Below are positions 986 through 28,251 of a stretch of DNA of 41,267 nt, piece by piece. Every line of letters starts with the position of its first letter. The first letter of the stretch is position 1. The stretch is from Gammaproteobacteria bacterium (GTDB taxonomy: Bacteria > Pseudomonadota > Gammaproteobacteria > Ga0077536), in NCBI GenBank assembly GCA_040904625.1, contig JBBDTC010000001.1:32-41298 (forward strand). Reading direction: 5' to 3'. The notes under the pieces were generated by a model that did no database searches, was not told where the DNA came from, and worked only from the letters and a program-made list of their open reading frames with translations. The position numbers and the translations under genes were made by a program.

Positions 986-989
986 ATCT

Positions 990-1046
990 GGGGTACGCAT
1001 CGGGAGTCACATCGAACGTACCCCGGATCGTACCCCTATATACCCC
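990..1046. repeat. Putative integrase arm-type binding sites
   Basis: GGGGTAC (990-996) is inverted relative to the direct repeats GTACCCC (1018-1024), GTACCCC (1030-1036) and ATACCCC (1040-1046), between the int start and the tRNA 3' end. Confidence 0.55.
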
Positions 1047-11758: not shown

Positions 11759-12130
11759 TCAAGTGGAGAAGCGCAACCAGGCGTAAGCCGCCCAGATCAC
11801 GGCGAGCAGGACAAGGGCCAGGAATACCGCGGCGGAACCGAGGTCCTTGGCCCGTCCTGAGAGTTCGTGATGCTCCGGGCCGATGCGATCGGCGAGTGCC
11901 TCGATGGCCGAGTTGAACAATTCACTGATGAGCACGAACAGCAGTGAGGCGATCAGAATGGCGTAATCGAGCGGACTGCGTCCGACCCAGAACACGCAGG
12001 GAAACAACACGCCCACCAGCAGGACTTCCTGACGGAATGCCGCCTCATGGTGCCAGCCGGCGCGCAGTCCCTGCATGGAATAGCCGAAAGCCTTGATGAT
12101 GCGGTCGAGGCCGCGCGCCTTGTTCGCCAT
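11759..12130 (-). CDS. dgkA: Diacylglycerol kinase (DgkA family)
   Basis: AFGYSMQGL..HEAAFRQE..ELFNSAIE..HELSGRAKDLGSAAV; three hydrophobic helices. Confidence 0.95.
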   Translation of the reverse strand: MANKARGLDRIIKAFGYSMQGLRAGWHHEAAFRQEVLLVGVLFPCVFWVGRSPLDYAILIASLLFVLISELFNSAIEALADRIGPEHHELSGRAKDLGSAAVFLALVLLAVIWAAYAWLRFST

Positions 12131-13431: not shown

Positions 13432-14055
13432 ATGCTCATGGTTACCGGTCTGACCAAACGACAAGCTGAAATCCTTGCCTTGATCCGCGCCACCATCCGG
13501 CGCACCGGTATGCCTCCGACGCGCAGCGAAATCGCACAGGCCTTCGGTTTCCGTTCCGCCAACGCGGCCGAGGAACACCTGCGGGCGCTGGCCCGCAAAG
13601 GGGCCATCGAACTCCTGCCCGGTGCCTCACGCGGCATCCGTTTAGCCGACGACGAGGCTTTGCACACGCCGGGCTTGCCCGTCATCGGGCGGGTCGCGGC
13701 CGGTCAACCGCTGCTCGCTGTCGAACACATCGAAGAGTATCAACGCGTCGATCCGGGTGTGTTCCGGCCACGGGCCGATTATCTGCTGCGTGTGGCCGGC
13801 ATGAGCATGCGGGGTGCCGGGATCCTGGATGGCGATCTACTGGCCGTGCATGCGACGCGGGTGGCCAGCAATGGTCAGATCGTCGTCGCCCGGCTCGATG
13901 ACGAGGTGACCGTCAAGCGGTTCCGGCAGCGCGGCAACCGGGTACAGCTGTTGCCGGAGAATCCGGCTTTCGATCCTCTGGAAATCCTGCCCGGCAGCCA
14001 TGAACTCGTCATTGAGGGACTTGGCGTCGGCGTCCTGCGCACGCACGCGGCATGA
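13432..14055 (+). CDS. lexA: SOS repressor LexA
   Basis: [32 protein letters not shown] cleavage site, GMSM serine, VTVKR lysine. Confidence 0.97.
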
Positions 14056-14744
14056 GTCTCGACGAGTTGATGCGGCATGCCCGGATCTGGCGCGGTGGAG
14101 AGCTGCCGCCGGGCACCACGCAGGCGACCGGTTTCGCCGCTCTCGACGCGATCCTGCCCGGGCAGGGCTGGCCACAGACCGGCCTGACGGAAATCCACGC
14201 GGCGGCAACCGGTATCGGGGCCTTGCAGTTGGTGCTGCCGGCCCTGGCGGCGCTGAGCCGGCAGGGCCACTGGATCGTTTGGATCAATCCGCCCTACCAG
14301 CCCCACGCACCGGCACTCAGCGCGCAAGGCCTCGATCTGGCTCGCCTGCTGGTCGTCGATCTGCCGGCGCAGCCGGGGGCGGCCCGGGATGAGATGCTGT
14401 GGGTCTATGAGCAGGCTTTGCGCTTCACCGCCTGCGGCGCTGCCTTGGCCTGGTTCGGCCACGTCCCGTCACTGCATCTGCGTCGTCTGCAGCTCGCCGC
14501 GGAGGCGGGGAGAACCTGGGGCGTAGCCTTTCGCCCTGTCGATACGCTCGAACAGGCTTCGCCGGCGCTGCTGCGGCTTACCCTGGAGGCTGTGGCCAAC
14601 GAGATCGAGACTGGCCGCCCCGCACCGATCGAAATCACGCTGCTCAAGGCGCGAGGGGGGCGCGCTGGCCGACGTTGTCGCTTGAAGCTCGATGCAGCGC
14701 CGCAACCGGGCGACGACAGGCTGCCAGCAGCCTGTCGGACTTAG
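14052..14744 (+). CDS. imuA: Translesion synthesis accessory protein ImuA
   Basis: [34 protein letters not shown]; lies between lexA and imuB. Confidence 0.9.
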
Positions 14745-14888
14745 GGCATCGTGACGAGGCGAGTGGGAGAGCGAGGTCAGATTGGCGCGCATTGGAGGCG
14801 AATAGTGGGGCTATTTAACGAGAATGCGCGCCGATATGGACCGCTATCCCACCGCCGCAGTAGATGCGGCCTGAGTCCGACAGGCTGC
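14727..14888. mobile_element. MITE family B (162 bp)
   Basis: TIRs GCAGCCTGTCGGACTTAGG / CCTGAGTCCGACAGGCTGC, flanked by a CA direct repeat; internal palindromic arms (GGCGCGCATT / AATGCGCGCC). Confidence 0.85.
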
Positions 14889-14904
14889 CAGGGAGTATGA
14901 ATTC

Positions 14905-16485
14905 ATGGCGACGTTGATCAGGCCACCATCTTCGCGGGGACGCCCCGCCGCGCCGCTGCGCGATGTCAGCAGCCCGCAGGCAGCGGTAGCAGCACGCTGC
15001 GGGCCGCGCCAGGATGGCGGTCGACTCTGGCTGCACCTGCACCTGCCGCAGCTGCCTCTGGAGGTGCTCACCCGTGGGGTCGATACCGCGCGGGCCTGTG
15101 TCCTGGTCGATGGCGGGAATCCCCGCGGCCGGATTCTGCTCACCAATCCGCGCGCCGCGGCGTGCGGTATTCGCGCCGGTATGCCGCTGGCCGCTGCGCA
15201 TGCCCTGGGCGAGCTGATCGTCATCGAGCGCGATATGCACGCCGAACAGCAGGCGCTGCAACAGCTTTGCCTGTGGGCGGTACAGTTCACCGCCATAGTC
15301 AGCGCCGTCCCGCCGGACGGCCTGGTGCTCGAGATCAAGGGCAGTCTTCGCCTGTTCGGCGGCTTGCAGGGTTTATTGCTACGCCTGCGTCAGGGCATGC
15401 GTGAGCTCGGCTATCGGGCTGATTATGCCGTGGCCCCGACGCCGCTGGCGGCAGCGGCTTTGGCCCGTAGCGAGCCGCGCACGGTCTTGCAGGAGCTGCA
15501 CCAGCTCGTGCCTGGACTCGCCCGCTTGCCGCTGGCCGCCTTACGCCTCGAACCGGCCATGTCCCAGGCGCTCGAACAGCTCGGTGTCCGCCAGATCGGC
15601 GATTGCCGGCGCTTGCCGCGGGCGGGCCTGGCCAGGCGTCTGTCGCCCACGCTGGTGCAAATGCTCGATCGTCTTTTCGGGCAGGTCGTGGATTTGCGCC
15701 CGGCCTTCGAACTGCCGCGCCGCTTCGATGGCGAAATCGATCTGCCTTGGGAAGTGACCAGTACCCGGGGCCTGATGCGTGCCGTGGAGCCTCTTTTACA
15801 CGAACTGCACGGCTATCTCGTTGCCAACGCGGCCACGACCCGCCAGTTGCGTTGGCGTTTGATCGATCGTCAGGGGGGCCGTGAGGATTTCCAGGTCAAT
15901 TTCTCTCGCGCCGGGAGTGATCGCCGGCAGATGCTCCTGTTGATGCGGGAAACGCTCGCCCGCAAGCGCCTGGCGATGCCGGTTCGTGCCATCAGCCTGC
16001 GGGTCGATGATCTGATTTTCGGTGTCGCATCCCCGCCCCGGGATTTATTCGCCCAACGAGCATCAGAGCATGACGAGGCCTATGCCGGTTTCATCGATCG
16101 CCTGCGTGCGCGCTGTGGTGAACAGGCATTGCGCAGTCTGCGTGTGCAGGGTGGCCATCGTCCCGAATACGCTTCCGGTTGGCAGCGTCCGGTACTGACC
16201 GATGGGCGTCGAGGTCGTGTGCCGACGCCCGCCACTTGCCTCACCCGTCACCCACTGTGGCTCCTCGAGCGGCCCCTCAGACTCGACGTTCGCGGTGATC
16301 GCCCCGTCTTCGACGGGCCGCTGCGCCTGGATCCGGAGCGTGAGCGCATTCAGAGCGGCTGGTGGGATGAATCGGGCATCAAACGCGATTACTTCGTTGC
16401 CACCACCGGTCGCGGAGGACGCCTGTGGATCTATCGTGAATTGGAGGGTGGGCGACGCTGGTATTTACACGGCGTCTTCGATTGA
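14905..16485 (+). CDS. imuB: Y-family polymerase-like ImuB
   Basis: LWLHLHLPQLPLE, GIRAGMPLAAA, LEIKGSLRLFGG, PERERIQSGWWD..RDYF..WYLHGVFD. The true start may be further downstream. Confidence 0.9.
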   Translation: MATLIRPPSSRGRPAAPLRDVSSPQAAVAARCGPRQDGGRLWLHLHLPQLPLEVLTRGVDTARACVLVDGGNPRGRILLTNPRAAACGIRAGMPLAAAHALGELIVIERDMHAEQQALQQLCLWAVQFTAIVSAVPPDGLVLEIKGSLRLFGGLQGLLLRLRQGMRELGYRADYAVAPTPLAAAALARSEPRTVLQELHQLVPGLARLPLAALRLEPAMSQALEQLGVRQIGDCRRLPRAGLARRLSPTLVQMLDRLFGQVVDLRPAFELPRRFDGEIDLPWEVTSTRGLMRAVEPLLHELHGYLVANAATTRQLRWRLIDRQGGREDFQVNFSRAGSDRRQMLLLMRETLARKRLAMPVRAISLRVDDLIFGVASPPRDLFAQRASEHDEAYAGFIDRLRARCGEQALRSLRVQGGHRPEYASGWQRPVLTDGRRGRVPTPATCLTRHPLWLLERPLRLDVRGDRPVFDGPLRLDPERERIQSGWWDESGIKRDYFVATTGRGGRLWIYRELEGGRRWYLHGVFD

Positions 16486-16699: not shown

Positions 16700-16925
16700 T
16701 AACTCGCACACCTCGGCTCGATCGCGCGGTCAAACCAACAATCACGACCCGCCCAACGCGCATCCCGAGGAAACTCTGTCGGAACCGGACAGTGCACGGC
16801 CCACATAACTGAATTTGACTCATAAATGTTACGAACCGGTTATAATCGCGCCCGCTGTATCAGGGGGGGCAAACCGCGCCTGCCGCGGTTGTTGATTCAG
16901 TCAAGACAAGGTTACTCAATTGACG

Positions 16926-18674
16926 ATGAAAGCGACGAAAATCAATAATCTGTTGCCATTGCGCAATGCTGACTTCGATACGCTGGTCGAAGCCTTGGAA
17001 TACGCTGCCGAGGGTGATACCGGCTATAACTTCTACGACGGCAAGGGCGAACTGTTCGCGGTCCTGAGCTATGCAGATCTGCGCATCAAGGCACAGGCCC
17101 TGGGACGACGCCTGCTCGGGCTCGGCTGCAAGCGCGGCGCCCGCGTCGCCATCGTGGCTGAATCAGAACCGCTGTTCCATCTCTTTTTCTTCGCCTGCCA
17201 GTACGCCGGGTATATTCCTGTCGCTTTACCCGCGGGATTCCAGATCGGCGCGCGCAAGGCCTATGTCGAACAGCTCGAGCGCATGCTCGACAGTTGCGGG
17301 GCCGATCTCGCCGTTGCCCCCGAATCGCATGTGGCTTTCCTGCGCCAGGCCGTCGAACGGCTCGATCTGGTCAAGGCCGGCACGCCGGAGGAATTCGACG
17401 CCTTGCCGGAGCGCGATTGCGTGCTCGAACCGCTGCGCGCCGACGAAGTCGCTTATTTGCAGTATACGTCCGGCAGCACGCGCTTCCCGCGCGGTGTGGA
17501 GATCTCACAGCGAACCGTGATGACCAATTTGCGTGACATCGCCGTCCACGGGCTCAAAATCACGCGCGACGATCGCATGGTGGCGTGGCTACCCCTCTAC
17601 CACGATATGGGTCTGGTCGGTTTCGTGCTGCTGCCGCTGGGCAGCCAGCTTTCGGCCGATTACTTGAGCCCGCGCACCTTTGCCATGCGCCCGCGTTTGT
17701 GGTTGAAGATCATTTCCCAGAACCGCGGCACGATCTCTTCCAGCCCGCCGTTCGGCTATGCCCTGTGTGCCAAACGGCTGCGCTTGACCGATCAGGATCG
17801 CTACGACCTGAGTTCCTGGCGGGTGGCCTGTGTCGGCGCCGAACGAATCCACCCCGAACCGCTGCGCCAATTCGCCCATGTGCTCGCACCGGCCAAATTC
17901 AATCCCGACGCTTTCGTGGCCTGCTACGGCATGGCCGAATGCGCGCTGGCCATCAGCTTTGCCGAGCTCGGCACCGGCATCAGTGCGGTCAAGGTCGATA
18001 AGGAGCGTATGGCAACGACCGGCCAGGTCGAGTTGCTCGATACGAGTGCCAGTCGCGCGGAGGACAGCCTGATTTTCGTCGATTGCGGCAAGATACTGCC
18101 GAGCTTCGAGCTCGCAATCCGTGACGACAAGGGTAACGATCTGCCCGACTACCAATGCGGGCGTATCTGTCTGCGCGGCGCGAGCGTGATGAGCGGTTAT
18201 TTCCAGAATCCGACCGCCACTGCTGAAGTCCTTTCCGACGATGGCTGGCTCGATACCGGCGACATCGGCTACCGCTTCGGCGATCATGTGGTCGTCACTG
18301 CCCGTCGCAAGGACGTCATCATCGTCAACGGACGTAACATCTGGCCGCATGATCTCGAGTTCCTGGCGGAAAGCCTGCCGGGGGTACGCTTCGGTAATGT
18401 CTCCGCGTTCTCCTTCGCCGACGACAATGGGGCCGATCAGGTGGTTATGGTGGTCGAGTCGCGCGAAGTCAATCCGGCCAAGGCGCGCACCCTGATCGAC
18501 GATCTGCGCGCGCTCATCACCGCACATTTCGGCATTGCCTGCCATATCGATCTGGTGCCGCCGCGAACCCTGCCGCGAACTTCGTCCGGCAAGTTGTCGC
18601 GTTCCAAGGCCAAACAGGATTTTCTCGCACGTACGGCAGGCGTCGGCGGCAACCTCGCTGGCGCGCATGGGTGA
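16926..18674 (+). CDS. Fatty acyl-AMP ligase / acyl-ACP synthetase of the sphingolipid cluster
   Basis: YLQYTSGSTRFPRG, WLPLYHDMGLVG, CYGMAE, WLDTGDIG, LPRTSSGKLSR. Confidence 0.9.
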   Translation: MKATKINNLLPLRNADFDTLVEALEYAAEGDTGYNFYDGKGELFAVLSYADLRIKAQALGRRLLGLGCKRGARVAIVAESEPLFHLFFFACQYAGYIPVALPAGFQIGARKAYVEQLERMLDSCGADLAVAPESHVAFLRQAVERLDLVKAGTPEEFDALPERDCVLEPLRADEVAYLQYTSGSTRFPRGVEISQRTVMTNLRDIAVHGLKITRDDRMVAWLPLYHDMGLVGFVLLPLGSQLSADYLSPRTFAMRPRLWLKIISQNRGTISSSPPFGYALCAKRLRLTDQDRYDLSSWRVACVGAERIHPEPLRQFAHVLAPAKFNPDAFVACYGMAECALAISFAELGTGISAVKVDKERMATTGQVELLDTSASRAEDSLIFVDCGKILPSFELAIRDDKGNDLPDYQCGRICLRGASVMSGYFQNPTATAEVLSDDGWLDTGDIGYRFGDHVVVTARRKDVIIVNGRNIWPHDLEFLAESLPGVRFGNVSAFSFADDNGADQVVMVVESREVNPAKARTLIDDLRALITAHFGIACHIDLVPPRTLPRTSSGKLSRSKAKQDFLARTAGVGGNLAGAHG

Positions 18675-19641
18675 AACCGGGCGGGGCAGACCACATATCG
18701 TCCTGACCGGAGCGACGGGATTCATCGGCCGACACCTGCAGCGCACGCTGTGCGACAACGGCTACGACATCTCCGCTCTCGTTCGTCCAGGATCGGCCAA
18801 TACGGCCCACGTCCTGCCGGATGTGCGCGTCCGTCGCGGCGCCCTCGATGCCCCGGCCTTCCTCGATGAGGTCCTGAGCGGCGCTGATTTCGTCGTTTAT
18901 GCCGCTGGCGCGGTGCGCGGCCGCTGTGTCGACGACTTCTGGCCGGCGAATGTCGCCGGTGTTGCCAGCGTGGCCGCCGCCGCGGCACGAGTGATGACCC
19001 ATCCCCGCATCATCCTGATTTCCTCTCTGGCTGCCAGCAAGGCGCAGTTATCCGACTATGCCGCGAGCAAGAGAGCGGGTGAAGATGCACTGCGCGCTTG
19101 TGCCGGCATCGAGTGGACGATACTACGGCCACCAGCGGTCTATGGACCGGGCGATCGGGAGATGCGCCCGTTGTTTACCGCCATCAGACGTGGTCTCGCC
19201 GTCATCGTCGGCCCGCAAGGCCAGCGCCTGTCACTGCTCCATGCGGCAGACCTGGCGCGCGCCGTGGCTGCGATCATCGATGGTTTCGAGCACTGTGTGG
19301 GCGCCTGCTACGAACTCGATGACGGACATCCGCAGGGTTACGGCTGGGCGGATATCATCGCCCAGGCCAACAACGGCAGCCGTACCTTATCCGTGCGCAT
19401 ACCGCGTGCTGTTCTGGATCGACTGGCGCGCTGGAATGTCGCACTGCCGCACCGGCGGCGGCACTTGCCCATGCTGTCGCCGGGCAAGGTCCGCGAACTT
19501 TCCGAGCCCAGTTGGCTTTGCAATAATCAAGCGCTCACTGCGGCGACCGGATGGTTGCCGCGAATCCGTCTTCGTGAGGGCGTCGCGGAGCTGTTTGCCT
19601 CGCCACCGTCCGCAAGCCCGTCCGGCTGGAGCTCCCAGTGA
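18667..19641 (+). CDS. cerR: NAD-dependent epimerase/SDR family, putative ceramide reductase
   Basis: TGATGFIG, ISSLAA, YAASK, LRPPAVYGPGD; lies between the acyl ligase and ACP/spt as in the Caulobacter cluster. Confidence 0.75.
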   Translation: MGETGRGRPHIVLTGATGFIGRHLQRTLCDNGYDISALVRPGSANTAHVLPDVRVRRGALDAPAFLDEVLSGADFVVYAAGAVRGRCVDDFWPANVAGVASVAAAAARVMTHPRIILISSLAASKAQLSDYAASKRAGEDALRACAGIEWTILRPPAVYGPGDREMRPLFTAIRRGLAVIVGPQGQRLSLLHAADLARAVAAIIDGFEHCVGACYELDDGHPQGYGWADIIAQANNGSRTLSVRIPRAVLDRLARWNVALPHRRRHLPMLSPGKVRELSEPSWLCNNQALTAATGWLPRIRLREGVAELFASPPSASPSGWSSQ

Positions 19642-19886
19642 AACTCGATCATAGCGCCATAGTCGAAGAACTGATCCGGCTGCTCGAGGCAGCGTTGGGT
19701 CGGCGTCAGGCGATGTCTGCCGATACCGCCCTGATTGCCGATCTCGGGCTCGAATCCATCCAGGTCATCGAATACCTGTGCGAGGTCGAAGACCGTTTCG
19801 ATCTCGCGATTGACGAAGACACCCTGGCCGATGTCCAGACTGTCGGTGACTTGGCCGCGGTCGTGCAGCGGCTGCTGAACGGTTGA
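19638..19886 (+). CDS. Acyl carrier protein dedicated to sphingolipid synthesis
   Basis: 82 aa, acidic, DLGLESIQVIE phosphopantetheine serine motif, TVGDL; directly upstream of spt. Confidence 0.9.
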   Translation: MKLDHSAIVEELIRLLEAALGRRQAMSADTALIADLGLESIQVIEYLCEVEDRFDLAIDEDTLADVQTVGDLAAVVQRLLNG

Positions 19887-21095
19887 ATGTCCATGCGCTT
19901 GTTCGAAAAATTCAAAGCCGCCGAGACCACCCGGGCACTGCTCGAGGCGTTGCCGGTCAATCCGACCGGGGTCGTCATCGAAGAGGTATTGAGTGCAACT
20001 GAAGCAGTTGTGGGCGGGCGTCATACGATCATGGCCGGAACCAACAACTACCTCGGTCTGACGTTCGATGCGGCGGCGATTGCGGCAGGTCAGCAGGCGC
20101 TGGCCAAAGCGGGTACCGGAACGACCGGCTCGCGTATGGCCAACGGCACTTATCGTGCCCATCTCGAACTCGAAGCGGAACTCGCAGCGTTCTACGAGCT
20201 GCCTCATGCCATGGTGTTCTCGACCGGCTATGCAGCCAATCTCGGGACTCTGGTCGCCTTGCTCGGGGAAGGCGATGCGGTGCTGCTCGATGCCGAGGCC
20301 CATGCAAGTTTGTTCGACGGTTGCCGCATGAGCGGCGCCGATATCTTCCGCTTCAAACACAATGATCCCGACGGCCTGGCCAATCGCCTGCGGCGTCTGG
20401 GAGAGCGCGCGCAGAATGCGCTGATCGTGGTCGAGGGTCTGTACAGTATTCGGGGTGATTGCGCGCCGCTGCGCGAGTACGCCGCGGTCAAGGCCGAGTA
20501 CGGTGGTTATCTGTTCGTCGACGAGGCCCATTCGCTCGGCGTCTATGGCGATCGTGGGCGCGGCCTGGTTGAATCCGAAGGCATACTTGCAGAGACCGAT
20601 TTCGTTGTCGGTACGTTCAGCAAGAGTCTTGGCTCGATCGGTGGGTTTTGTGTCAGCCGTCATCCGGAACTGGCTCTTTTCCGCTATGCCAGCCGACCTT
20701 ACATCTTTACGGCATCGCCCTGCCCGTCAGTGATCGCGACCACCCGCGAAGCATTGCGCCGCATCGCCGAACAGCCGCAGCTTCGAGATCAGCTGTGGCG
20801 AAATGCGCGCTGCCTGTATACCGCGCTCGCCGGACTGGGGCTGCGACTGGGGCCGCATGTCAGCCCGGTCATCGGTATTTCATTTGCCGAGCGCGATGTT
20901 GCCTTGCGCTGCTGGCAGGGACTGCTCGAAGCAGGGGTCTATACCAATCTCATCCTTCCTCCGGCGGCGCCTGATGGCGGCAGCCTCATCCGCGTGAGTG
21001 TCACGGCTGCGCATACCGAGGCACAAATCGAGCGCATCATCAGCAGCTTCGAAAACGTCGTGCGGCAGCACGCGGCCGGCGGCTGTACAGTCTGA
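19887..21095 (+). CDS. spt: Serine palmitoyltransferase (alpha-oxoamine synthase)
   Basis: AGTNNYLGL, TTGSRMANGT, HASL, DEAHS, GTFSKSLG (PLP lysine); acp/cerR/bcerS context favours Spt over BioF. Confidence 0.85.
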   Translation: MSMRLFEKFKAAETTRALLEALPVNPTGVVIEEVLSATEAVVGGRHTIMAGTNNYLGLTFDAAAIAAGQQALAKAGTGTTGSRMANGTYRAHLELEAELAAFYELPHAMVFSTGYAANLGTLVALLGEGDAVLLDAEAHASLFDGCRMSGADIFRFKHNDPDGLANRLRRLGERAQNALIVVEGLYSIRGDCAPLREYAAVKAEYGGYLFVDEAHSLGVYGDRGRGLVESEGILAETDFVVGTFSKSLGSIGGFCVSRHPELALFRYASRPYIFTASPCPSVIATTREALRRIAEQPQLRDQLWRNARCLYTALAGLGLRLGPHVSPVIGISFAERDVALRCWQGLLEAGVYTNLILPPAAPDGGSLIRVSVTAAHTEAQIERIISSFENVVRQHAAGGCTV

Positions 21096-21107
21096 CTGCG
21101 GGACTCA

Positions 21108-21264
21108 GGGCCCGTCCCAGGATAACTCGGTTGTCTGGAACGCCGATCGATCCCGTCTGGCGGCGTTGCTCGTCAGTTGAATAGAACCACTATTCGCCCT
21201 CCTCGCGCCTTGCCAGCCGGGCGCCCCAACGCCCCAGACAACCGAGTCATTCTGGGACGGGCCC
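21108..21264. mobile_element. MITE family A, copy 2 (157 bp, inverted relative to copy 1)
   Basis: Long TIRs GGGCCCGTCCCAGGATAACTCGGTTGTCTGG / CCAGACAACCGAGTCATTCTGGGACGGGCCC; TCA direct repeat at 21105-21107 and 21265-21267. Confidence 0.92.
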
Positions 21265-22185
21265 TCAGCGAAACCCGCCGCGACGATAGAGTCGCCACAG
21301 CAATGGCCAGGCGAAGATCAGCGGGTGTCGTCGTTGCAGATCGGTCGCCTCCATATGAAGGCCGCTGTGGCGTTCGACCTTCCATAAGACGTAATCCAAT
21401 GGGTCATTGAAGGTGAAGGCAGCTTTGCCCAGGCGCAACACGGCAAGCAGCTTGCCGGCAATGCGGCGCCCGCTCCAAGCCAAGGCAGCGCGGCGCCGTG
21501 CAAACCCGGAGCGGGTATTGCGCCAGCCTCCCTCGTCACAGGCAATGAGTCCGAATTCTCCGGCGAGGCGTGCTGTCATCGCCTCGAGATGCTCGTGGTA
21601 GCAGGCGGTCAGTTCGGCGGCGCGTGAGGTGTCTTCACTACGCAATTCGCTGCCATAGGTCAGGGCGAATCCCCGGCGCCATAGCTCGGTGGTCGTGAAA
21701 CAGTCAGGCAGCATATCGAGGGTGGCGCTGAGCATACGCCGGCAGGCGTCGATACCCGCCTGCTGAACACGCTCGTGAACGGCTTCGTCACGTGCGTACA
21801 CGATGTCGAAGGGCTGCGCGAATCGTGACCAGAAATAGGTGTGAAAATCCGTGCCTATGGCGTGCTCGAATTGCTTCAGCGTGACCGTGGCGTATTTGGC
21901 CGCACACGCTGTAGCGTCGGCGCGGAGCACTAAATGATAGACATTCGGCGGCAGCAGACGGTTGGCCGCCGCCGCCGTGCGTGATTCCAGCGCTGAATAG
22001 TCATCCAGCAGGACATAGAAATCGAGCACGGTGTCGCGTTTGCCGCGCAGGTACGAACCATAGAGCACGATCGCCGCGACGCTTTCGCCGTAGCGCTCCT
22101 GGAAGGCGTTCGCATAGTGCGGCGGAGTGGGTGCAGACGACTGATCGCGGACGTCATGTAATGATGAGGGCGGCTTTTCGGTCAC
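21265..22185 (-). CDS. Nucleotidyltransferase-fold protein, Tam41/Mmp37-like
   Basis: LYGSYLRG..VLDFYV (Pol-beta NTase-like GS..D motif), AKYATVT and YFWSRFAQP resemble Tam41 motifs as recalled. GTG start at 22185 with GGAG upstream. Confidence 0.6.
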   Translation of the reverse strand: MTEKPPSSLHDVRDQSSAPTPPHYANAFQERYGESVAAIVLYGSYLRGKRDTVLDFYVLLDDYSALESRTAAAANRLLPPNVYHLVLRADATACAAKYATVTLKQFEHAIGTDFHTYFWSRFAQPFDIVYARDEAVHERVQQAGIDACRRMLSATLDMLPDCFTTTELWRRGFALTYGSELRSEDTSRAAELTACYHEHLEAMTARLAGEFGLIACDEGGWRNTRSGFARRRAALAWSGRRIAGKLLAVLRLGKAAFTFNDPLDYVLWKVERHSGLHMEATDLQRRHPLIFAWPLLWRLYRRGGFR

Positions 22186-22189
22186 GAAC

Positions 22190-23257
22190 TCAACTCCGCG
22201 TCGCCAGATACCGCACGCCATACAGCGCACTCGCCAGGACCACCAGGGCAGGGAGCAGGGCGGTCGGCCCTGGTGCCAGTTCGAACAGCAACGACAATTG
22301 CCCGGCTACCTGTTCGAAAAGGTAGAAGCCGACGCCTATGGCAGCACCGAGCACGACGCGAAGCCCGGTCGAACGTACGCGTACCGAGTTCAATACCAAT
22401 GGCAGCCCCAGCAGCAGCATGCCGGCGAGGGTAAATGGCACGCTGATCTGATGCCAGAATCGGGCCGAGTGCTCGCGAACGTCGAGACCTGACCCGCGGT
22501 TCTCACGCAGGTAGCGATAGAGGTCGAGCGGAGACAATGCGTGCAGCGGTGCTATCAGCGTGGAGATTTGTTCGGGCGAGAGAAAGCTCTCCCACGCCAG
22601 CTGTGGGAGCTGGCGAACAAGTACCTGATCGTGCTCGATGACCTTCTCCTCGACATCGTGCAGCAACCATTCTCGCGAACTGACGACGTCCGCTTTGGCG
22701 GCGCGAACGAGACGAACCAGGCGCGCCTCGGCATCGAGTTCGTAGAGTTCGATATCGCGTGGGATCCGGCCGAACTCCACACTGCCGACGCGAATGATGC
22801 GCCGCTCGTGCCGACTCCAGAATTCCGCGTCACCGAGGGCGGTGCGTTCCAGTGTGCGTGAGCGATACTCCTGCGCTTTGCGCTCTGCGGCGGGTATGAG
22901 GGCGTACTGGAACAGCACCACCGCCGCGATCAGCGCGGCCGCGATGCCGAGCAGGATGCGTGCGATGCGCCAGGTCGAGAAGCCCGCGGCACGGATGGCT
23001 GTCAATTCCTGGTGATTGGCCAACATGCCCAGACCCAGCATGGACCCGAGCAGTGCGGTCACGGGGAGCAAATCGACGATGCGTCGTGGGGTTGTGAGCA
23101 GGACGACGGCAACTGCATCGGCCCCGGTGTAGGAACCGCTGCCGACGTCTTCCAGCGCTTCGGTGAAGGCCATGAAGCTGAACAGTGTGAGCAGGATCAG
23201 CAGAACCGCGCCGGCGGCAAGGCAGAAATGGAAGCCGATGTAGCGCGCGAGAAGCAT
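22190..23257 (-). CDS. lptG: LptG-family permease
   Basis: LLARYI, LPVTALLGSMLGLGMLANHQELTAIRAAGFS; three N-terminal and three C-terminal TM segments around a periplasmic domain. Confidence 0.88.
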   Translation of the reverse strand: MLLARYIGFHFCLAAGAVLLILLTLFSFMAFTEALEDVGSGSYTGADAVAVVLLTTPRRIVDLLPVTALLGSMLGLGMLANHQELTAIRAAGFSTWRIARILLGIAAALIAAVVLFQYALIPAAERKAQEYRSRTLERTALGDAEFWSRHERRIIRVGSVEFGRIPRDIELYELDAEARLVRLVRAAKADVVSSREWLLHDVEEKVIEHDQVLVRQLPQLAWESFLSPEQISTLIAPLHALSPLDLYRYLRENRGSGLDVREHSARFWHQISVPFTLAGMLLLGLPLVLNSVRVRSTGLRVVLGAAIGVGFYLFEQVAGQLSLLFELAPGPTALLPALVVLASALYGVRYLATRS

Positions 23258-23260
23258 GTT

Positions 23261-24313
23261 TCAGAAACTCAACCGACGACGCGCGCCGAAAGCGACGACA
23301 AGAGCAAGGGCGAGCAGGCCTGGTGCCCACCACAAGGTCGCGACGGTTTCCTGTTCGACCCAGGTGCGCGCGACACCCAGGAAGTTGTAATAAATCGCAT
23401 AGATGCCGATTGCGAGAGGCAGCCGCGCAAAGCGGCTCTGCCGTGGCCGGTGATCGATCAGCATCAAAGCGGCCAGCGCGAGCAGCACTGTGGACACGGG
23501 CGTCGATAGCCGCCATTGGAGTTCTGCGCGATCATCAGGATCCTGGGAGTGGAGCAAAGCTCCGGTAGCCGCGGACTTGGTGCGATACTCCTCGTCAGTG
23601 CCAGTTTGTACGCGCAACGCCAGTGTCAGTTCGTCGAAGCGCCCGAGCACGTCCGGGGGCTGTTCGGAAGCCCTGAAGATGTTTGCGTCATGGAGCACCA
23701 GCCGATGCCGCGATGGTGTGACATGGCCGTGCAGATAACCGCGCGGTGCCGAGATGACTTCCAGGCCATCGGCCGTGCGGGTGCGAATGAATATGCCCTG
23801 CAAGGTCTGGCCGTTGTCGCGGATATCCTCGATATAAACGCTGCGGTTCTCCTCTTCGTAGATGTAGAACCGCTGTGGCTTGATCCGATCGAGCTCCGAT
23901 GCCGTTTCGGCGTGATCTTTCAAGGCAAACATGGCCTCGTACGTTTCTGGCCTGACGCCGATCGAGAGTATGGCGACAACAACGGCGAGTCCGATGGCGA
24001 GCATGATGAGAGGGCGGTAGAGGCGGCCCAGCGACAGGCCGCAGGCGCGCATTGCGGTTGTCTCACCATGTAAATTGAGCTTTCCGCACGCGACGATGAC
24101 ACCGAAAAAGAACGCCAGCGGCAGCAGAACCTCGAGTGCGATGATCGCTTTGTATACGGTCAGGCGCGCGACTTCGGGAGCGTTGAGCAAACCGCCTGCG
24201 GCGTCGGCGAGGAAGCGCGTCAGGCTATAGGCAAAGAAAATCACCGTCAGTATGATGGCCACCGTGGCAAAGCTCACACAGGTTTCCCGAACAAGGTAGC
24301 GATCGAGCAGCAC
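23261..24313 (-). CDS. lptF: LptF-family permease
   Basis: LLDRYLVRE, LLPLAFFFG..ETTAMRACGLS, AELQWRLSTP; tandem with lptG. Confidence 0.88.
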   Translation of the reverse strand: MLLDRYLVRETCVSFATVAIILTVIFFAYSLTRFLADAAGGLLNAPEVARLTVYKAIIALEVLLPLAFFFGVIVACGKLNLHGETTAMRACGLSLGRLYRPLIMLAIGLAVVVAILSIGVRPETYEAMFALKDHAETASELDRIKPQRFYIYEEENRSVYIEDIRDNGQTLQGIFIRTRTADGLEVISAPRGYLHGHVTPSRHRLVLHDANIFRASEQPPDVLGRFDELTLALRVQTGTDEEYRTKSAATGALLHSQDPDDRAELQWRLSTPVSTVLLALAALMLIDHRPRQSRFARLPLAIGIYAIYYNFLGVARTWVEQETVATLWWAPGLLALALVVAFGARRRLSF

Positions 24314-24428
24314 GGTGGGGGAACTCGGGCGGGAGAAAATGGCGATCAGCGATCAAAGCAGGCACTATGATGCGCACCGCTGCCGGCGAGCGCAACCGCT
24401 CGTGCATTTGCTGCTCGGTCTGATACTG

Positions 24429-24914
24429 GTGAAACACCGATTTTGCTGCGTTTCCTTGGGCCTGTTCTTGCCGATGATGGCCATTGCGGATGAACTGCCG
24501 CCGCTGCTGCCGCTGGACGATGTCGTTTTCATCAGCGCGCAGCAAGGACACCAGGGAATCGACCGAGACGAGTTCGAGGCCCGAGGCGCGTTACGAATGC
24601 GCGGAGCTCAATGGGCGATCTACGCGGATCACGCCAAGGTATACGGGCCCTTGCGCGACCCGGAATCGATCCGTGTTGCCGGCACGCCCGCTCGCATCGT
24701 CTATCATCGCAGCGGGGACGACGAACCGCTCGAGGGACATAGCGACATGCTGGAATTCGATCCGCGCCGGGATATCGTTCGGCTCGAGCGCGGCGCGAAG
24801 ATCGTCAAAGGGCGGCAATCAATCACCAGCGAAACCATCAAATACCTGCTCGAGCGAGATACCTTCACGGCGGGCTCCAGCGGGCGGGTCAAGGTCGTGA
24901 CGAAACCTCGCTGA
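24429..24914 (+). CDS. LptA/OstA-like periplasmic beta-jellyroll protein
   Basis: GTG start gives a signal peptide (MKHRFCCVSLGLFLPMMAIA); IYADHAKV, VAGTPARI, LERGAKIVKGRQSITSETIKY, GRVKVV match the LptA pattern; divergent from lptF. Confidence 0.72.
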   Translation: MKHRFCCVSLGLFLPMMAIADELPPLLPLDDVVFISAQQGHQGIDRDEFEARGALRMRGAQWAIYADHAKVYGPLRDPESIRVAGTPARIVYHRSGDDEPLEGHSDMLEFDPRRDIVRLERGAKIVKGRQSITSETIKYLLERDTFTAGSSGRVKVVTKPR

Positions 24915-24927
24915 ATCCGCCAGAACG

Positions 24928-25701
24928 CTACTCAGTGCTGGCGGTACGACGCCGGGCCAGGCGCCGGTTCCACTCGGCCAGATTGTGCAGCGGATCCTTG
25001 ACGTAGTGGCTGGCCTTCATCAGTCGCAGGATCCCTGCATTGACCCAGCGTCCCGTCCGGTCCATTGGCCGATCGATATCGATGAACAGTACTGCACGGT
25101 GCTCCGTCGTGTCATTGGCGACTTCGTGCTCGTAAGTATCATCGAAGAGCACGCAGGCGCCTTCGCGCCAATGGTAGATTTCCTTGTCGACACGAATCCA
25201 GCAGCGTTCGCGCGCAGCAGGTACGCGCAGGCCGAGATGGCAACGCACCAACGCTCGCGTCGGACCGCGGTGTGCGGGTATGTGATAACCAGGAGACAGG
25301 ATCGAGAACCAGGCATTGAGTAGCCCGGGTAGGGCGGCGAGCGCAGCGGCAGTCTGCGGGCATGCCGAACAATTCGGTTCCACGGGTTGGCCAAAGATGA
25401 AAAGCGCATACGTTTTCCACTGGTCCCCTTTCGAGATGCGGGCCTGGTCAGGCGATATCTGATGGAAGGCCGGAATGTCCTCGGGATGCGTCCACACCTG
25501 GTCGAACTCGGCGCGGATGCCCGGCCATGCCGCTTCCAGGCGCGGCACCCAGTCGAATGTCGAATTGGGCAGAAAAGGGGTTGTCGGGATCGAGGAATGA
25601 CGCGCCTGGAACTCCGTCAGCCGACGCAGGAAGCGTTTGCCAGCGCGATGCGCGGTGGTGCGGCGCCAACGCCGCCAGCGCGAAGGGGTGTCATTGTTCA
25701 C
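24928..25701 (-). CDS. Aspartyl/asparaginyl beta-hydroxylase family Fe(II)/2OG dioxygenase
   Basis: WFSILSPGYHIPAHRGP, CHLGL, WREG..FDDTYEHEVAND, RAVLFIDIDRP. GTG start overlaps the upstream stop. Confidence 0.88.
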   Translation of the reverse strand: MNNDTPSRWRRWRRTTAHRAGKRFLRRLTEFQARHSSIPTTPFLPNSTFDWVPRLEAAWPGIRAEFDQVWTHPEDIPAFHQISPDQARISKGDQWKTYALFIFGQPVEPNCSACPQTAAALAALPGLLNAWFSILSPGYHIPAHRGPTRALVRCHLGLRVPAARERCWIRVDKEIYHWREGACVLFDDTYEHEVANDTTEHRAVLFIDIDRPMDRTGRWVNAGILRLMKASHYVKDPLHNLAEWNRRLARRRTASTE

Positions 25702-26482
25702 AGAGTATCCTTTCGGCGAGAGCGAGATCGGCGCCGGAGTCGACGTCGACAGCCGCACGCGGATTGTCGATCACGACCCAGCTGATGTCAGCCCCGGTGC
25801 GTCGCGAGAGTTCGAGGAAGGCGTCGGCACGATCGAGCCTGCCGCTCAAATAGCGCAGCAGCGCGCCGCTCCCCAACTGCCGGGCGATACGCCACGGGCG
25901 CTTGCGGTTCGCTTCGACGCCTTGCCAGAATTCCAGGGCTGCAAGCGCCTGCGGGCTGCGCAGCAAGTAGAGGTTGGCGCCACAACAGGCGCCGTCGTGG
26001 AAGCGCAGCAGGGTCCGCCGTGATTCCGGCCATGCCGCTCGTATAAGGGCGTAGGGGACGATGCCGACGATCAGATCAGCCTGCAGGCTCAGCGCCTCAG
26101 TGCAGAAATGATCGATGAGTTCCGATGTCAACAGCGCGTGATCGCCTGCCGTCAATAAGAATGGATAACGGTCGAGGTGTCGTGCGGCATCGAGCGCGCT
26201 CGCCGAAGGTCCTGCTGCCGGCTCCCGCCAGGCGAAATCGCCTGCATCGAGCAAGCGGCTGATGACGGCCGAGCCATCGACGACCTCGTGCGCAGGGCCG
26301 ACCAGCAAACCGCCGTCGATGCAGCGACTCGAACGCAGTGCGCCGATGACATGTTCGAGGCAGGTTTGCCCGGCAAGCTCCACGAGGACGCCGGCCGCTA
26401 CGCCACGAGAACGGGCCAGTGCGCTGCCGCCCGGGCGCTCGCCGGCGAGTACGATTGCCGGCATGGTTCGGTCCGCACTCAT
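25691..26482 (-). CDS. MobA-like nucleotidyltransferase (CpgD-like)
   Basis: AIVLAG, LLTAGDHALL, CGANL, RKRPWR, AVDVDS; sphingolipid cluster context. Confidence 0.75.
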   Translation of the reverse strand: MSADRTMPAIVLAGERPGGSALARSRGVAAGVLVELAGQTCLEHVIGALRSSRCIDGGLLVGPAHEVVDGSAVISRLLDAGDFAWREPAAGPSASALDAARHLDRYPFLLTAGDHALLTSELIDHFCTEALSLQADLIVGIVPYALIRAAWPESRRTLLRFHDGACCGANLYLLRSPQALAALEFWQGVEANRKRPWRIARQLGSGALLRYLSGRLDRADAFLELSRRTGADISWVVIDNPRAAVDVDSGADLALAERILCEQ

Positions 26483-26503
26483 CGTTTGCACCGGGCGGAT
26501 CGT

Positions 26504-27649
26504 TCAGGTGAGTGCTTTCTCATATACTCTGTAGCGCTTCGATTCCCGTCCGCCGAGCGTGGCGATGATGTTCTTCATCGCTTCGTTGCTCTCGAGTATC
26601 CATGACATCTCGACTTCTTCCAGTCCCATCCTCAGCCCGGGCTCACGCAGCGCTTCGACGACCGACAAAGCCAGTCCCGGACCATAGCGGGTGCGATGGA
26701 GGCGTTGCCGCACGCCCATCAGCGGGATCCGCGCCGTGCGGGGATAGCCGAACTTGAGTCGTTTAATCAGTTTCAACCAACCGAATGGCAGCAGCCGGCC
26801 ATCGAGATCGGCGATGACTTCGTTGACGTTCGGCAGCAGTACGATAAAAGCGACCGGCTCTCCTTTCATCTCCGCAATCTGGATGAAATCGGGCGGGATG
26901 ATCATCAGCATCTCGTGGCCGATGGTGCGAAATTCGTCTTTCGTAAATGGGACGAAGCCCCAGTTACCGGCCCAGGCATCATTGAATATATCGCGCAGAA
27001 TCTCGAGATCGCGGTCTTTTTGCCGTGGCTCGATCGGACGAATGATGACCTCGCGTTTGAGCCGAGCGTAGAGCGAAGCCATTACCTGCGGCGGTGAGAA
27101 ATCCGCCCGAATCAGATAGGCGAGCATATCCGCAGCTTTGGCGTAGCCGTGCTGCTCGAGGCTACGTCCGTAATAGGGGTGGGCATGGGTCATCATGAAA
27201 AAGGGCGGCGTATCGAAGCCGTCGACGAGAAGGCCGACTTCCTGATTGATGTTCAACCCGAACGGGCCGCGCGCCCGCTGCATGCCGCGCTCAATCAGCC
27301 AACGCTCGGCGACCTCGAGCAGCGCGCCGCAGGTGCGCTCATCGTCAGGAGCGTCGAAATAACCGAAGAAGCCGGTCGCATCATCGTAGCGATCGAGATG
27401 GAGCCGATCGATCTGCGCGGTAATACGTCCGACTGCCTTGTGGCCGCGGTAGGCCACCCAGCCCTGCCAGTCGAGATGGGCGAACACGGGCTGTTTCGGG
27501 GATAGCGCTTCTTTGCGCTCGAACAGCAGCGGTGGGATCCAGTGCGGATCGTCGCGAAAAAGTGCCCATGGCACGCGCACGAAATCCTTGAGCGTGCGGC
27601 GGTCCGTGACTGGGCGGAGGTGGAGGTCAGCGCCTCGCATATCGTTCAT
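26504..27649 (-). CDS. bcerS: GNAT-fold N-acyltransferase, putative bacterial ceramide synthase
   Basis: WIPPL, GRITAQID, GFFGYFD, RGPF..NQEVGLLVDGF, IFNDAWAGNWGFVP, EMSWILESN, KRYRVYEK; co-located with spt. Confidence 0.8.
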   Translation of the reverse strand: MNDMRGADLHLRPVTDRRTLKDFVRVPWALFRDDPHWIPPLLFERKEALSPKQPVFAHLDWQGWVAYRGHKAVGRITAQIDRLHLDRYDDATGFFGYFDAPDDERTCGALLEVAERWLIERGMQRARGPFGLNINQEVGLLVDGFDTPPFFMMTHAHPYYGRSLEQHGYAKAADMLAYLIRADFSPPQVMASLYARLKREVIIRPIEPRQKDRDLEILRDIFNDAWAGNWGFVPFTKDEFRTIGHEMLMIIPPDFIQIAEMKGEPVAFIVLLPNVNEVIADLDGRLLPFGWLKLIKRLKFGYPRTARIPLMGVRQRLHRTRYGPGLALSVVEALREPGLRMGLEEVEMSWILESNEAMKNIIATLGGRESKRYRVYEKALT

Positions 27650-27804
27650 AGAATCAGGTCCGAACGGCCCTGGCGGCCTGGCGAGGCGGCATGGTAGCCA
27701 ATGCGCGAGTGGGTGGGAACCGCCATGCGCGGCACCGCCCGAAGCCCGTCGGCCTGCGCCCTGGCTGCTTTATACTACGGGCCTCAATCAACGAGGGGCG
27801 CACG

Positions 27805-28251
27805 ATGAAACCTAAAGTCCAGCAAGAGTATGTTCAGATCCAGGATCTCGAATGGCAGCCGTTCCCGGAGGCGTTCTCGGCTGGTGGGATTCGCTGGAAA
27901 CTGCTCCACGTCTCGCCCGAATTGGGCGCGTGGACGGCCATTTTCGATTGTCCGGCCGGATCTTCATTTGCCAGTCATATCCATGTCGGGCCAGGCGAAT
28001 ACCTGCTGACCAAGGGCAAGATGGAAGTGCGCGGCGGTGCGGACGAGGGGGGTGCGACGGCCTACGAACTCGGCTACGGATACGAATCGTGCAATGCCCG
28101 GCACGACAAGACCCATTTCCCGATCGAGAGCGAATTCTACATGACCTTTCTGGGGCCTCTGCAGTTCATCAACGCCGATGGCAGCCCCCGTGCCGTAGTC
28201 GGCTGGGAGCAGGCACAGGAACTGTGGGCTGCGCAGACCGGGACGGCCTGA
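27805..28251 (+). CDS. dke1: Acetylacetone-cleaving cupin dioxygenase (Dke1 type)
   Basis: PFPEAFS.GGI.W.LLH.SPE...WTAIF.CPAGSSFASHIH.GPGEY.LTKGKMEVRGG and FYMTFLGPL closely match Acinetobacter johnsonii Dke1 as recalled; 3-His site (HIH plus ARHDKT). Confidence 0.85.
   Translation: MKPKVQQEYVQIQDLEWQPFPEAFSAGGIRWKLLHVSPELGAWTAIFDCPAGSSFASHIHVGPGEYLLTKGKMEVRGGADEGGATAYELGYGYESCNARHDKTHFPIESEFYMTFLGPLQFINADGSPRAVVGWEQAQELWAAQTGTA

Follow-up and report, generated by a model that had tools for sequence, protein, structure and literature searches.

How a gammaproteobacterium that makes lipopolysaccharide (LPS) might also build a ceramide-type lipid, and by what machinery such a lipid would leave the inner membrane and cross the periplasm, are the questions raised by a cluster of eleven genes on contig JBBDTC010000001.1 of assembly GCA_040904625.1. 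The cluster lies within a stretch of 41,267 nt, hereafter the window, and all positions are those of this whole stretch; gene calls are based on a listing of its open reading frames (ORFs) and on scans with Pfam and NCBIfam families. By homology the region is a module for the synthesis of ceramide-type lipid, production itself being predicted, and the locus as a whole is a genuine and native variant of the kind already published for Caulobacter, such that a gammaproteobacterial ceramide cluster is not in itself news. The true differences are a hydroxylase of the LpxO/OlsC type within the operon, a paralogue of LptA, a ceramide kinase that was not found, and an LptF/LptG pair of separate ancestry. 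We consider it likely that this is a functional sphingolipid locus of an uncultured, LPS-making gammaproteobacterial family, with a duplication of LptF/LptG of its own. The genes, in order along the window, are:

16920-18674, plus strand: aasR-like fatty acyl-AMP ligase (synthetase of acyl-acyl carrier protein, ACP); PF00501, E 3.4e-55; NF006624, 736.2 bits (cut-off 600)
18667-19641 (ORF opens at 18535), plus strand: cerR-like NAD-dependent short-chain dehydrogenase/reductase (SDR), candidate ceramide/3-keto reductase; PF01370 (Epimerase), E 3.1e-24
19638-19886, plus strand: acpR-like dedicated ACP; PF00550, E 1e-10
19887-21095, plus strand: spt, serine palmitoyltransferase; NF047599, 576.7 bits (cut-off 500)
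21265-22230, minus strand: nucleotidyltransferase of 321 residues with a Tam41-type fold, like CpgC (CC_1161/CCNA_01219); assigned by homology and model fold, with faint nucleotidyltransferase/Tam41 family matches
22190-23257, minus strand: cluster-linked LptG paralogue; PF03739, E 8.6e-63; TIGR04408, 303.5 bits
23261-24313, minus strand: cluster-linked LptF paralogue; PF03739, E 3.1e-62; TIGR04407, 279.5 bits
24315-24914 (likely start 24339 or 24429), plus strand: LptA-fold paralogue; PF03968, E 2.3e-5, 25-26.3 bits (cut-off 20.4)
24928-25758, minus strand: lipid hydroxylase of the Asp/Asn-beta-hydroxylase family, OlsC/LpxO-like; PF05118, E 2.5e-50
25691-26491, minus strand: CC_1153-like nucleotidyltransferase of the MobA/CofC type; PF12804, E 1.8e-9
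26504-27649, minus strand: bcerS, bacterial ceramide synthase homologue of 381 residues; assigned by homology and synteny

The plus-strand genes aasR-cerR-acpR-spt are faced by the converging minus-strand genes bcerS, CC_1153-type nucleotidyltransferase, hydroxylase, lptF, lptG and cpgC-like gene, and the LptA-like gene, between the hydroxylase and lptF, is antisense to both of its neighbours. All eleven genes had been named in an earlier, sequence-only reading of the window, and each is indeed an intact ORF at the place given; that reading left the strand of the lptA-like gene unsaid, and it is the plus strand. The gene that it called simply a last nucleotidyltransferase has weak matches of that kind, its identity being corrected here to that of a homologue of Caulobacter CpgC with a Tam41-like fold. 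The arrangement is not a matter of chance, since 80 public loci show this set of genes again around their bCerS homologues; these are the best 80 of 159 relatives found in a search with one genome per species, and they stand behind all counts out of 80 given below. Family scans found no ATPase gene among the cluster ORFs, and the numbers of predicted promoters and terminators between 16400 and 28400 are those of shuffled sequence (5 against 3.0 ± 1.7 and 8 against 8.2 ± 3.2, respectively).

Ceramide genes and their Caulobacter counterparts

The locus annotated on one complete Caulobacter chromosome (L065 and L092) consists of genes for an LptC-family protein, an unknown protein, a Polysacc_synt protein, the ligase, the SDR, the ACP and Spt, continuing with an opposite-strand gene for a 309-residue protein, then DAGK_cat and CDP-OH_P_transf genes, and after these a metallophosphoesterase, a HIT protein, LptF, LptG, a homologue of the 381-residue protein and a MobA-like nucleotidyltransferase. 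This is the order given for CC_1168 to CC_1153 in the published description (PMC11324152), from which it follows that the 381-residue protein corresponds to bCerS (CC_1154), the MobA-like protein to CC_1153 and the 321-residue protein to CpgC (CC_1161/CCNA_01219). Genetic work on the same ceramide genes in Caulobacter is described in PMC11324152 and PMC9393093.

Sequence comparison of the loci bears out these correspondences, in that the five-gene ceramide core and the extra LptF/LptG pair are both homologous to and syntenic with those of Caulobacter, and the order aasR-cerR-acpR-spt is the same. In those loci where it is complete, the leading ligase of the Caulobacter-type operon shares 43-47% identity with the ligase of the window. 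The SDR, for which ATG 18667 is the likely start (an 8-nt overlap with the ligase stop), carries the motifs GATGFIG and YAASK, as read from the sequence, and shares 32-38% identity, across 73-93% of its length, with the Caulobacter gene between aasR and acpR. The ACP, with its serine in the motif DLGLESIQ, is 34-40% identical to the ACP of the Caulobacter locus. The 381-residue bCerS homologue has no Pfam or NCBIfam match; over residues 3-380 it is 44-46% identical to the gene between lptG2 and the CC_1153 homologue of Caulobacter spp., the comparison being with genes in the CC_1154 position rather than with the NA1000 protein itself. In its nearest ESM-Atlas clusters the GNAT family PF00583 is found in 36-54% of members, which is a lead only.

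The aminotransferase deserves particular attention, as the sequence-only reading would have been undone by its grouping with BioF or Kbl. NCBIfam scores and solved structures place it instead with Spt. It scores 576.7 bits on the betaproteobacterial Spt model and 437 bits on the alphaproteobacterial one, as against 322.6 bits on the bioF model (cut-off 426) and 284.5 on that of Kbl (cut-off 460), the ALAS and CqsA-type models also remaining below their cut-offs. Its closest solved relatives are the Sphingomonas Spt structures 2x8u (398 bits) and 2jg2 (392 bits), with Kbl at no more than 212 bits and BioF at no more than 178. Moreover, the FSKS lysine that holds pyridoxal phosphate and the active-site HAS histidine align with those of solved Spt, and a separate BioF/Kbl-like gene, 31% identical, lies on contig C299.

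The locus is also at home in its genome. The sequence-only reading had taken the base composition to be native, and indeed the GC content of the cluster (0.61-0.64) matches that of the genome (0.64), while bCerS homologues occur in all five other genomes of the genus. The neighbouring genes include glnS, lexA-imuA-imuB, rnr, rlmB, dnaB and alr. Recent horizontal acquisition is rejected on the same grounds of GC content and presence in congeners, together with the housekeeping character of the neighbours. Further afield, 17 of the family's 24 other genomes have a bCerS homologue; none was found in 16 genomes drawn from 16 other families of the class, and 23 of 400 other genomes sampled evenly across the class gave one. 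Among the best 80 of 159 relatives, the closest bCerS loci are in metagenome-assembled genomes (MAGs) labelled Gammaproteobacteria, and among named isolates Elongatibacter sediminis comes nearest, at 57%.

In its general form such a locus is already in print. According to PMC11324152, alpha-, beta- and gammaproteobacteria share conserved ceramide genes, with contiguous clusters in Azotobacter vinelandii and Pseudomonas luteola, and gammaproteobacterial loci are also described in the 2026 preprint on Caulobacter (10.64898/2026.04.12.717747); to this extent the framing of the sequence-only reading, in which sphingolipids are mainly characterised in other groups, is not supported. With the Caulobacter crescentus locus CC_1152-CC_1168/CCNA_01212-01226, as described by Olea-Ozuna 2024 (PMC11324152), Zik 2022 (PMC9393093) and the Uchendu 2026 preprint, the cluster shares the aasR-cerR-acpR-spt operon, bcerS followed by a CC_1153-type nucleotidyltransferase, an opposite-strand CpgC homologue next to spt, a second LptF/LptG pair and the lack of an ATPase gene in the locus. 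It differs in being without CpgB, CpgA, CC_1152, CC_1158, the HIT protein, the Polysacc_synt flippase and LptC2, in having a hydroxylase and an LptA-fold gene which are absent from the Caulobacter locus, and in the separate ancestry of its LptF/LptG pair. The loci of A. vinelandii and P. luteola (PMC11324152) and of Escherichia coli UTI89 (2026 preprint) are likewise described as contiguous clusters of ceramide, head-group and LptF/LptG genes, also without LptC2. Those of A. vinelandii and P. luteola are set apart by the published description (PMC11324152), which credits them with 13 or more of the 17 Caulobacter genes and regards them as possible transfers from an alphaproteobacterium. A blastn search with spt of the window gave no match in complete E. 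coli genomes.

The LptF/LptG pair and the LptA paralogue

The genome has four LptF_LptG (PF03739) genes, namely the cluster pair, one gene beside pepA and one beside metH, and canonical lptC-lptA, lptD and lpxC are all encoded outside the cluster. The pair in the cluster is therefore extra to the housekeeping set, in an organism that makes LPS. There is no linkage between the housekeeping genes for the lptG-like and lptF-like proteins (contigs C116 and C77; contigs C11 and C10 in the congener G001), with no usual lptFG pair. According to the 2026 preprint (10.64898/2026.04.12.717747), Caulobacter that makes anionic sphingolipid needs LptF2/LptG2 for its export; the two proteins bind the cell's one LptB, and such pairs occur in many alpha- and gammaproteobacterial loci.

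The ancestry of the pair was followed in three trees, one joint for LptF and LptG and one for each, rooted on the other paralogue, from 'quick' IQ-TREE searches with four gammaproteobacterial and five alphaproteobacterial housekeeping copies. In all three, the cluster-linked copies of gammaproteobacteria (the family, Elongatibacter, Immundisolibacter and some MAGs) fall with the gammaproteobacterial housekeeping copies in a clade with 97-99% support in the Shimodaira-Hasegawa-like approximate likelihood ratio test. The Caulobacter-type LptF2/LptG2 form a different supported clade, from which two alphaproteobacterial-type cluster rows are missing in the case of LptG2, a third being made up of the housekeeping copies of alphaproteobacteria. 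The approximately unbiased (AU) test rejects the placing of every cluster-linked copy in one clade, both for LptG (p 2.5e-5; 19 rows against 14) and for LptF (p 9.9e-4; 21 against 14). Within the limits of quick trees and limited sampling, then, neither trees nor AU tests recover common descent of the pair with Caulobacter LptF2/LptG2. This suggests that the duplication here was separate from that of Caulobacter, and that the LPS exporter was co-opted for sphingolipids more than once.

Three observations on such pairs elsewhere may be set beside this one. Hydrocarboniphaga, a gammaproteobacterium (locus L061, genome G438), holds a cluster of alphaproteobacterial type with Caulobacter-type LptF2/LptG2 and CpgB, beside gammaproteobacterial housekeeping LptF/LptG of its own; since its pair falls in the Caulobacter-type clade, it looks to have been transferred from an alphaproteobacterium. 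In genomes G437 (locus L019) and G442 (L052) the pair of the sphingolipid locus provides the only LptF_LptG genes that were found, as is likewise described for Sphingomonas wittichii in the 2026 preprint (bioRxiv 10.64898/2026.04.12.717747). In two Caulobacteraceae MAGs, LptF2 and LptG2 read as one ORF of 770 residues (L058, 17951-20260; L062, 876-3185), which could be a fusion or a frameshift of assembly.

Together with canonical lptA and lptD, the gene of the LptA paralogue brings the PF03968 genes of the genome to three. The model of the paralogue has a predicted local distance difference test score (pLDDT) above 90 over residues 64-188. In Foldseek the best match is E. coli LptA (2r1a; E 7e-9, template modelling (TM) score 0.85 on the target, root-mean-square deviation (rmsd) 2.5 Å, 23% identity), followed by LptH (4uu4), with LptC lower at E 3e-6. 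Compared with E. coli LptA and Pseudomonas aeruginosa LptH together, the likeness is a beta-jellyroll of ~130 residues (TM 0.83-0.87 on the target, rmsd 2.1-3.4 Å) at 16-23% identity; the difference is that the gene is here a third copy inside a sphingolipid locus, with putative contacts to LptC, LptF and LptD. The N-terminus of the protein suggests export to the periplasm. A candidate identity as the counterpart of Caulobacter LptC2 was rejected, the BLASTP match being at E 1.4, the family PF03968 rather than PF06835, and LptA standing above LptC in Foldseek.

Within the 80 loci, a profile finds the LptA paralogue in 17, namely those with an LptF/LptG pair of the window's type or ending at a contig edge before the pair, and does not find it in loci of the Immundisolibacter type, in L030, in L073 or in alphaproteobacterial loci. 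Its distribution follows that of bCerS: of the family's 24 other genomes, 17 have bCerS and 15 of these carry the paralogue, which was found in none of the 7 that lack bCerS, and the two genes are always on one contig, 1.6-3.3 kb apart, a co-occurrence which is to be read as a pattern and not as a statistic because related genomes are not independent. A word-indexed protein search returned five proteins and gives little information on range. The matches in four congeners carry flags for a TGA inside; in the one worked out by hand (L002) the match runs three bases past the ORF, and the flags probably mark, at the match edge, the stop codon of the gene itself.

How sphingolipids pass the Gram-negative periplasm is stated to be unknown in the 2026 preprint (10.64898/2026.04.12.717747), which also describes LptC2 as apparently restricted to Caulobacter and states that no duplicate of LptA or of LptD/LptE occurs in the sphingolipid locus of any organism. 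As far as that statement goes, a locus-encoded LptA paralogue is therefore unreported. Conserved as it is, the gene is a concrete candidate for a part in periplasmic sphingolipid transport, with a cultured carrier in E. sediminis (L016), and together with the separately derived LptF/LptG pair it is the most useful lead to come from the window.

It might be argued instead that the LptF/LptG pair acts on LPS together with the hydroxylase and the LptA paralogue, one possible task being to export lipid A that has been hydroxylated or modified in some other way, with the ceramide genes as mere neighbours. Such a role would agree with the pair being nearer to gammaproteobacterial housekeeping copies than to Caulobacter LptF2/LptG2 and scoring above the NCBIfam equivalog cut-offs for both LptF and LptG, with the inclusion of LpxO in the family of the hydroxylase, and with the presence of LpxC, by which the genome makes lipid A. 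It is nonetheless improbable: the LptA paralogue keeps company with bCerS in the family genomes and lies close beside it, as given above, the Lpt genes stand inside the run of transcription from bcerS to cpgC and not at its edge, a complete housekeeping Lpt set is encoded elsewhere, and the corresponding pair of the Caulobacter locus is genetically tied to sphingolipids in the account of the 2026 preprint (10.64898/2026.04.12.717747).

The hydroxylase and the head-group genes

At the level of the family the hydroxylase belongs to PF05118; the OlsC model (cut-off 450) gives it 207.7 bits and that of LpxO (cut-off 500) 124.3 bits. Being below both cut-offs it is neither equivalog, and on this sequence evidence it is assigned to a separate branch of the lipid 2-hydroxylase family. 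OlsC, an ornithine-lipid 2-hydroxylase, and LpxO, a lipid A 2-hydroxylase, thus share its family, the difference being that here the gene stands in the context of bCerS and not with ornithine-lipid or lipid A genes. A homologue with at least 80% coverage lies within 10 kb of bCerS in 22 of the 80 loci, beta- and gammaproteobacterial ones included. A literature search joining LpxO/OlsC with sphingolipid terms gave, as judged by title, no paper on a hydroxylase of a sphingolipid locus.

With regard to the head group, the sequence-only reading had proposed a different set of tailoring enzymes, which for the two nucleotidyltransferases does not hold: since they are homologous to CC_1153 and to CpgC/CC_1161, they are head-group genes of the Caulobacter type and no new tailoring set. 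The CC_1153-like protein is 37% identical over 255 residues to the product of the Caulobacter gene directly after bcerS, and its gene has the same position in most loci. The CpgC-like protein is 33% identical over 301 residues to that of the Caulobacter gene adjoining spt; a homologue covering at least 80% of it is present in 38 loci, and its Y54-G55 and D67 are shared by all 35 sequences compared. Its model, made with 35 homologues, has a pLDDT of 89.8, and the best Foldseek matches are the CDP-diacylglycerol (CDP-DAG) synthases of the Tam41 type, 6ig4 and 7ecd (E 7e-8 to 6e-7, TM 0.47-0.60, ~275-285 columns). A domain of the CDP-DAG synthase type had already been remarked in CC_1161 (Olea-Ozuna 2024, PMC11324152). 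The likeness to Tam41 is, however, one of structure, with 12-15% identity and 12.9 bits on the Pfam Tam41 model (cut-off 24), and the putative substrate here would be ceramide phosphate.

The ceramide kinase CpgB (DAGK_cat/LCB5) was not found in this genome, a draft of 352 contigs and 93.4% complete, by tblastn with the Caulobacter protein; PF00781 gave two sub-threshold NAD-kinase-like frames over the genome, and a profile of 19 CpgB sequences gave no match in it. The same profile matches 3 of 31 genomes of the family, this one counted, two of them from one genus at 287-289 bits and one from another at 22.6 bits. The Caulobacter query likewise found nothing in four of four related gammaproteobacterial genomes, and CpgB is in none of 18 close-relative loci, nor in that of Elongatibacter (L016), nor in L029; it is present in most alphaproteobacterial loci. 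A CpgA-like CDP-alcohol phosphotransferase is encoded outside the cluster, on contig C189, between genes for a GMC oxidoreductase and an Lcl_C-domain protein, and is 54% identical to the in-cluster copy of locus L001 and 42% to Caulobacter CpgA. With CC_1152 as the query the only matches, of 24-31%, are on contig C352, and tblastn found no homologue of CC_1158 or of the metallophosphoesterase in the genome. The absence of CpgB, in as much as it was not found, beside retained homologues of CpgC, CpgA and CC_1153 makes this a natural experiment in the assembly of a phospho-head group.

A possible source of the missing phosphate is a DgkA-type diacylglycerol kinase encoded at 11759-12130 of the window on the minus strand (PF01219, 114.8 bits), ~5 kb upstream of the cluster; in the control set used, no PF01219 match was seen for Caulobacter vibrioides. 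E. coli DgkA phosphorylates ceramide in vitro. The DgkA-type kinase may take the place of the ceramide kinase that was not found, or its position may be coincidence. In insects, by another route, ceramide phosphoethanolamine synthase transfers directly from a CDP-alcohol to ceramide.

The head-group genes also provide the ground for a second alternative, in which the window copy is reduced and partly decaying, a neutral or hydroxylated ceramide or nothing at all is made, and CpgC and the CC_1153-like gene are leftovers. Close-relative loci carry within the cluster a CC_1152-like nucleotidyltransferase gene (often with HIT), the metallophosphoesterase gene and a CpgA-like gene. The cluster of the window is without these three, which are present in all 11 relatives that reach both positions (L001-L004, L007, L009-L013 and L015) and in Elongatibacter L016, and the metallophosphoesterase, as noted, is not found in the genome at all. 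The missing stretches are ~0.7 kb between the hydroxylase and the lptA paralogue (the CC_1152-like gene) and ~2.1 kb between lptG and cpgC (metallophosphoesterase and CpgA); in the window the hydroxylase abuts the LptA gene and lptG abuts cpgC. Yet all eleven ORFs are intact, with invariant residues kept, the CpgA-like gene persists on another contig, and the junctions are clean gene-to-gene abutments without pseudogene debris, all of which makes a reduced and partly decaying copy an unlikely account of the locus.

The proposed pathway and the flanking genes

Taking the locus, then, as a functional one for sphingolipids, and going by its homology with the genetically proven Caulobacter pathway, the following sequence of events may be proposed. 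AasR would load a fatty acid onto the dedicated ACP, Spt would condense the acyl-ACP with serine, bCerS would add the N-acyl chain and CerR would reduce the 3-keto group. Judging from protein family, the dioxygenase of the LpxO/OlsC type in the operon most likely 2-hydroxylates an acyl chain. The Tam41-like CpgC homologue would make a phospho-head group together with the unlinked CpgA-like enzyme and the CC_1153-like nucleotidyltransferase, with no ceramide kinase of the Caulobacter type. The first phosphate could come from another kinase, the DgkA-type protein of the window (11759-12130) being one option, or else the CpgA-like enzyme could transfer directly from a CDP-alcohol. The second LptF/LptG pair, presumably powered by a shared LptB, would then extract the lipid from the inner membrane and hand it to the locus-encoded LptA paralogue for passage across the periplasm, these export steps being drawn from context, co-occurrence, fold and the Caulobacter LptF2/LptG2 experiments.

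Several points weigh against this reading. The hydroxylase falls short of the OlsC and LpxO cut-offs and its sphingolipid substrate is putative, being taken from context. The export of the LptA paralogue rests on a hydrophobic N-terminal stretch and an alanine at the putative -1 position, as read by eye in all 16 homologues of the alignment; this N-terminal part of the model is of low confidence, and the start codon is uncertain (24339 or 24429). Nor is the paralogue the counterpart of LptC2 by descent, since BLASTP similarity to it is absent. The trees are quick and contain few housekeeping copies, the groups compared in the AU tests were named after the first tree had been seen, and gene conversion or the constraint of a shared LptB could mimic an independent duplication of LptF/LptG. 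With a draft that is 93.4% complete, homologues of CpgB, CC_1158 and CC_1152 are not found rather than proven absent, and because the three head-group genes are missing from the cluster, the head-group pathway could be reduced or decaying.

Farthest from the evidence is the notion that the alpha-oxoamine synthase makes another product (a sulfonolipid precursor, a signalling ketone or a product of the biotin or threonine pathways) and that there is no sphingolipid locus here, for although Spt, BioF, Kbl, CqsA and cysteate acyltransferases form one family in which specificity is not certain from sequence, and a cysteate-C-fatty acyltransferase is among the PDB matches at 152 bits, the enzyme passes the Spt cut-off and fails those of BioF, Kbl, ALAS and CqsA-type models, scores 398 bits with solved Spt as against 212 or less for the others, has a separate BioF/Kbl-like gene for company on C299, and is flanked by homologues of bCerS, CerR, AcpR and AasR as in the proven locus, so that this notion is very improbable.

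The preferred reading of a functional sphingolipid locus can be carried a step further, albeit tentatively and with the balance of our expectation against it. One gammaproteobacterial lineage, comprising the family, Elongatibacter and a few MAGs, may have independently built a sphingolipid branch of the Lpt system, duplicating LptA as well as its own LptF/LptG, with the LptA paralogue as sphingolipid carrier or bridge, and may make a headed sphingolipid with no known ceramide kinase, by CDP-alcohol chemistry or by a DgkA-type kinase. If this were true, the periplasmic step left open by the Caulobacter work would be filled, and dedicated sphingolipid exporters would have arisen from the LPS exporter on two or more occasions.

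The genes on either side of the cluster offer some further observations. A gene of the ChrR-type Cupin_7 family (27691-28251, plus strand) is divergent from bcerS across a gap of 41 bp and lies beside bCerS in 14 of the 80 loci, with an identity across loci (75-88%) above that of the cluster genes themselves. On the other side, 13432-16485 of the plus strand holds lexA, an ORF of 230 residues in the imuA position and an imuB-like gene (PF00817), ending 435 bp before the ligase; no dnaE2 follows the imuB-like gene in the window. A phage-type integrase gene (2-1000, minus strand) runs off the left end of the window. Finally, the segment 28000-33000 has a GC content of 0.51-0.56 over genes for a sigma-54 activator (GAF-AAA+), two multicopper oxidases and a dihaem cytochrome c, and may have been acquired separately.

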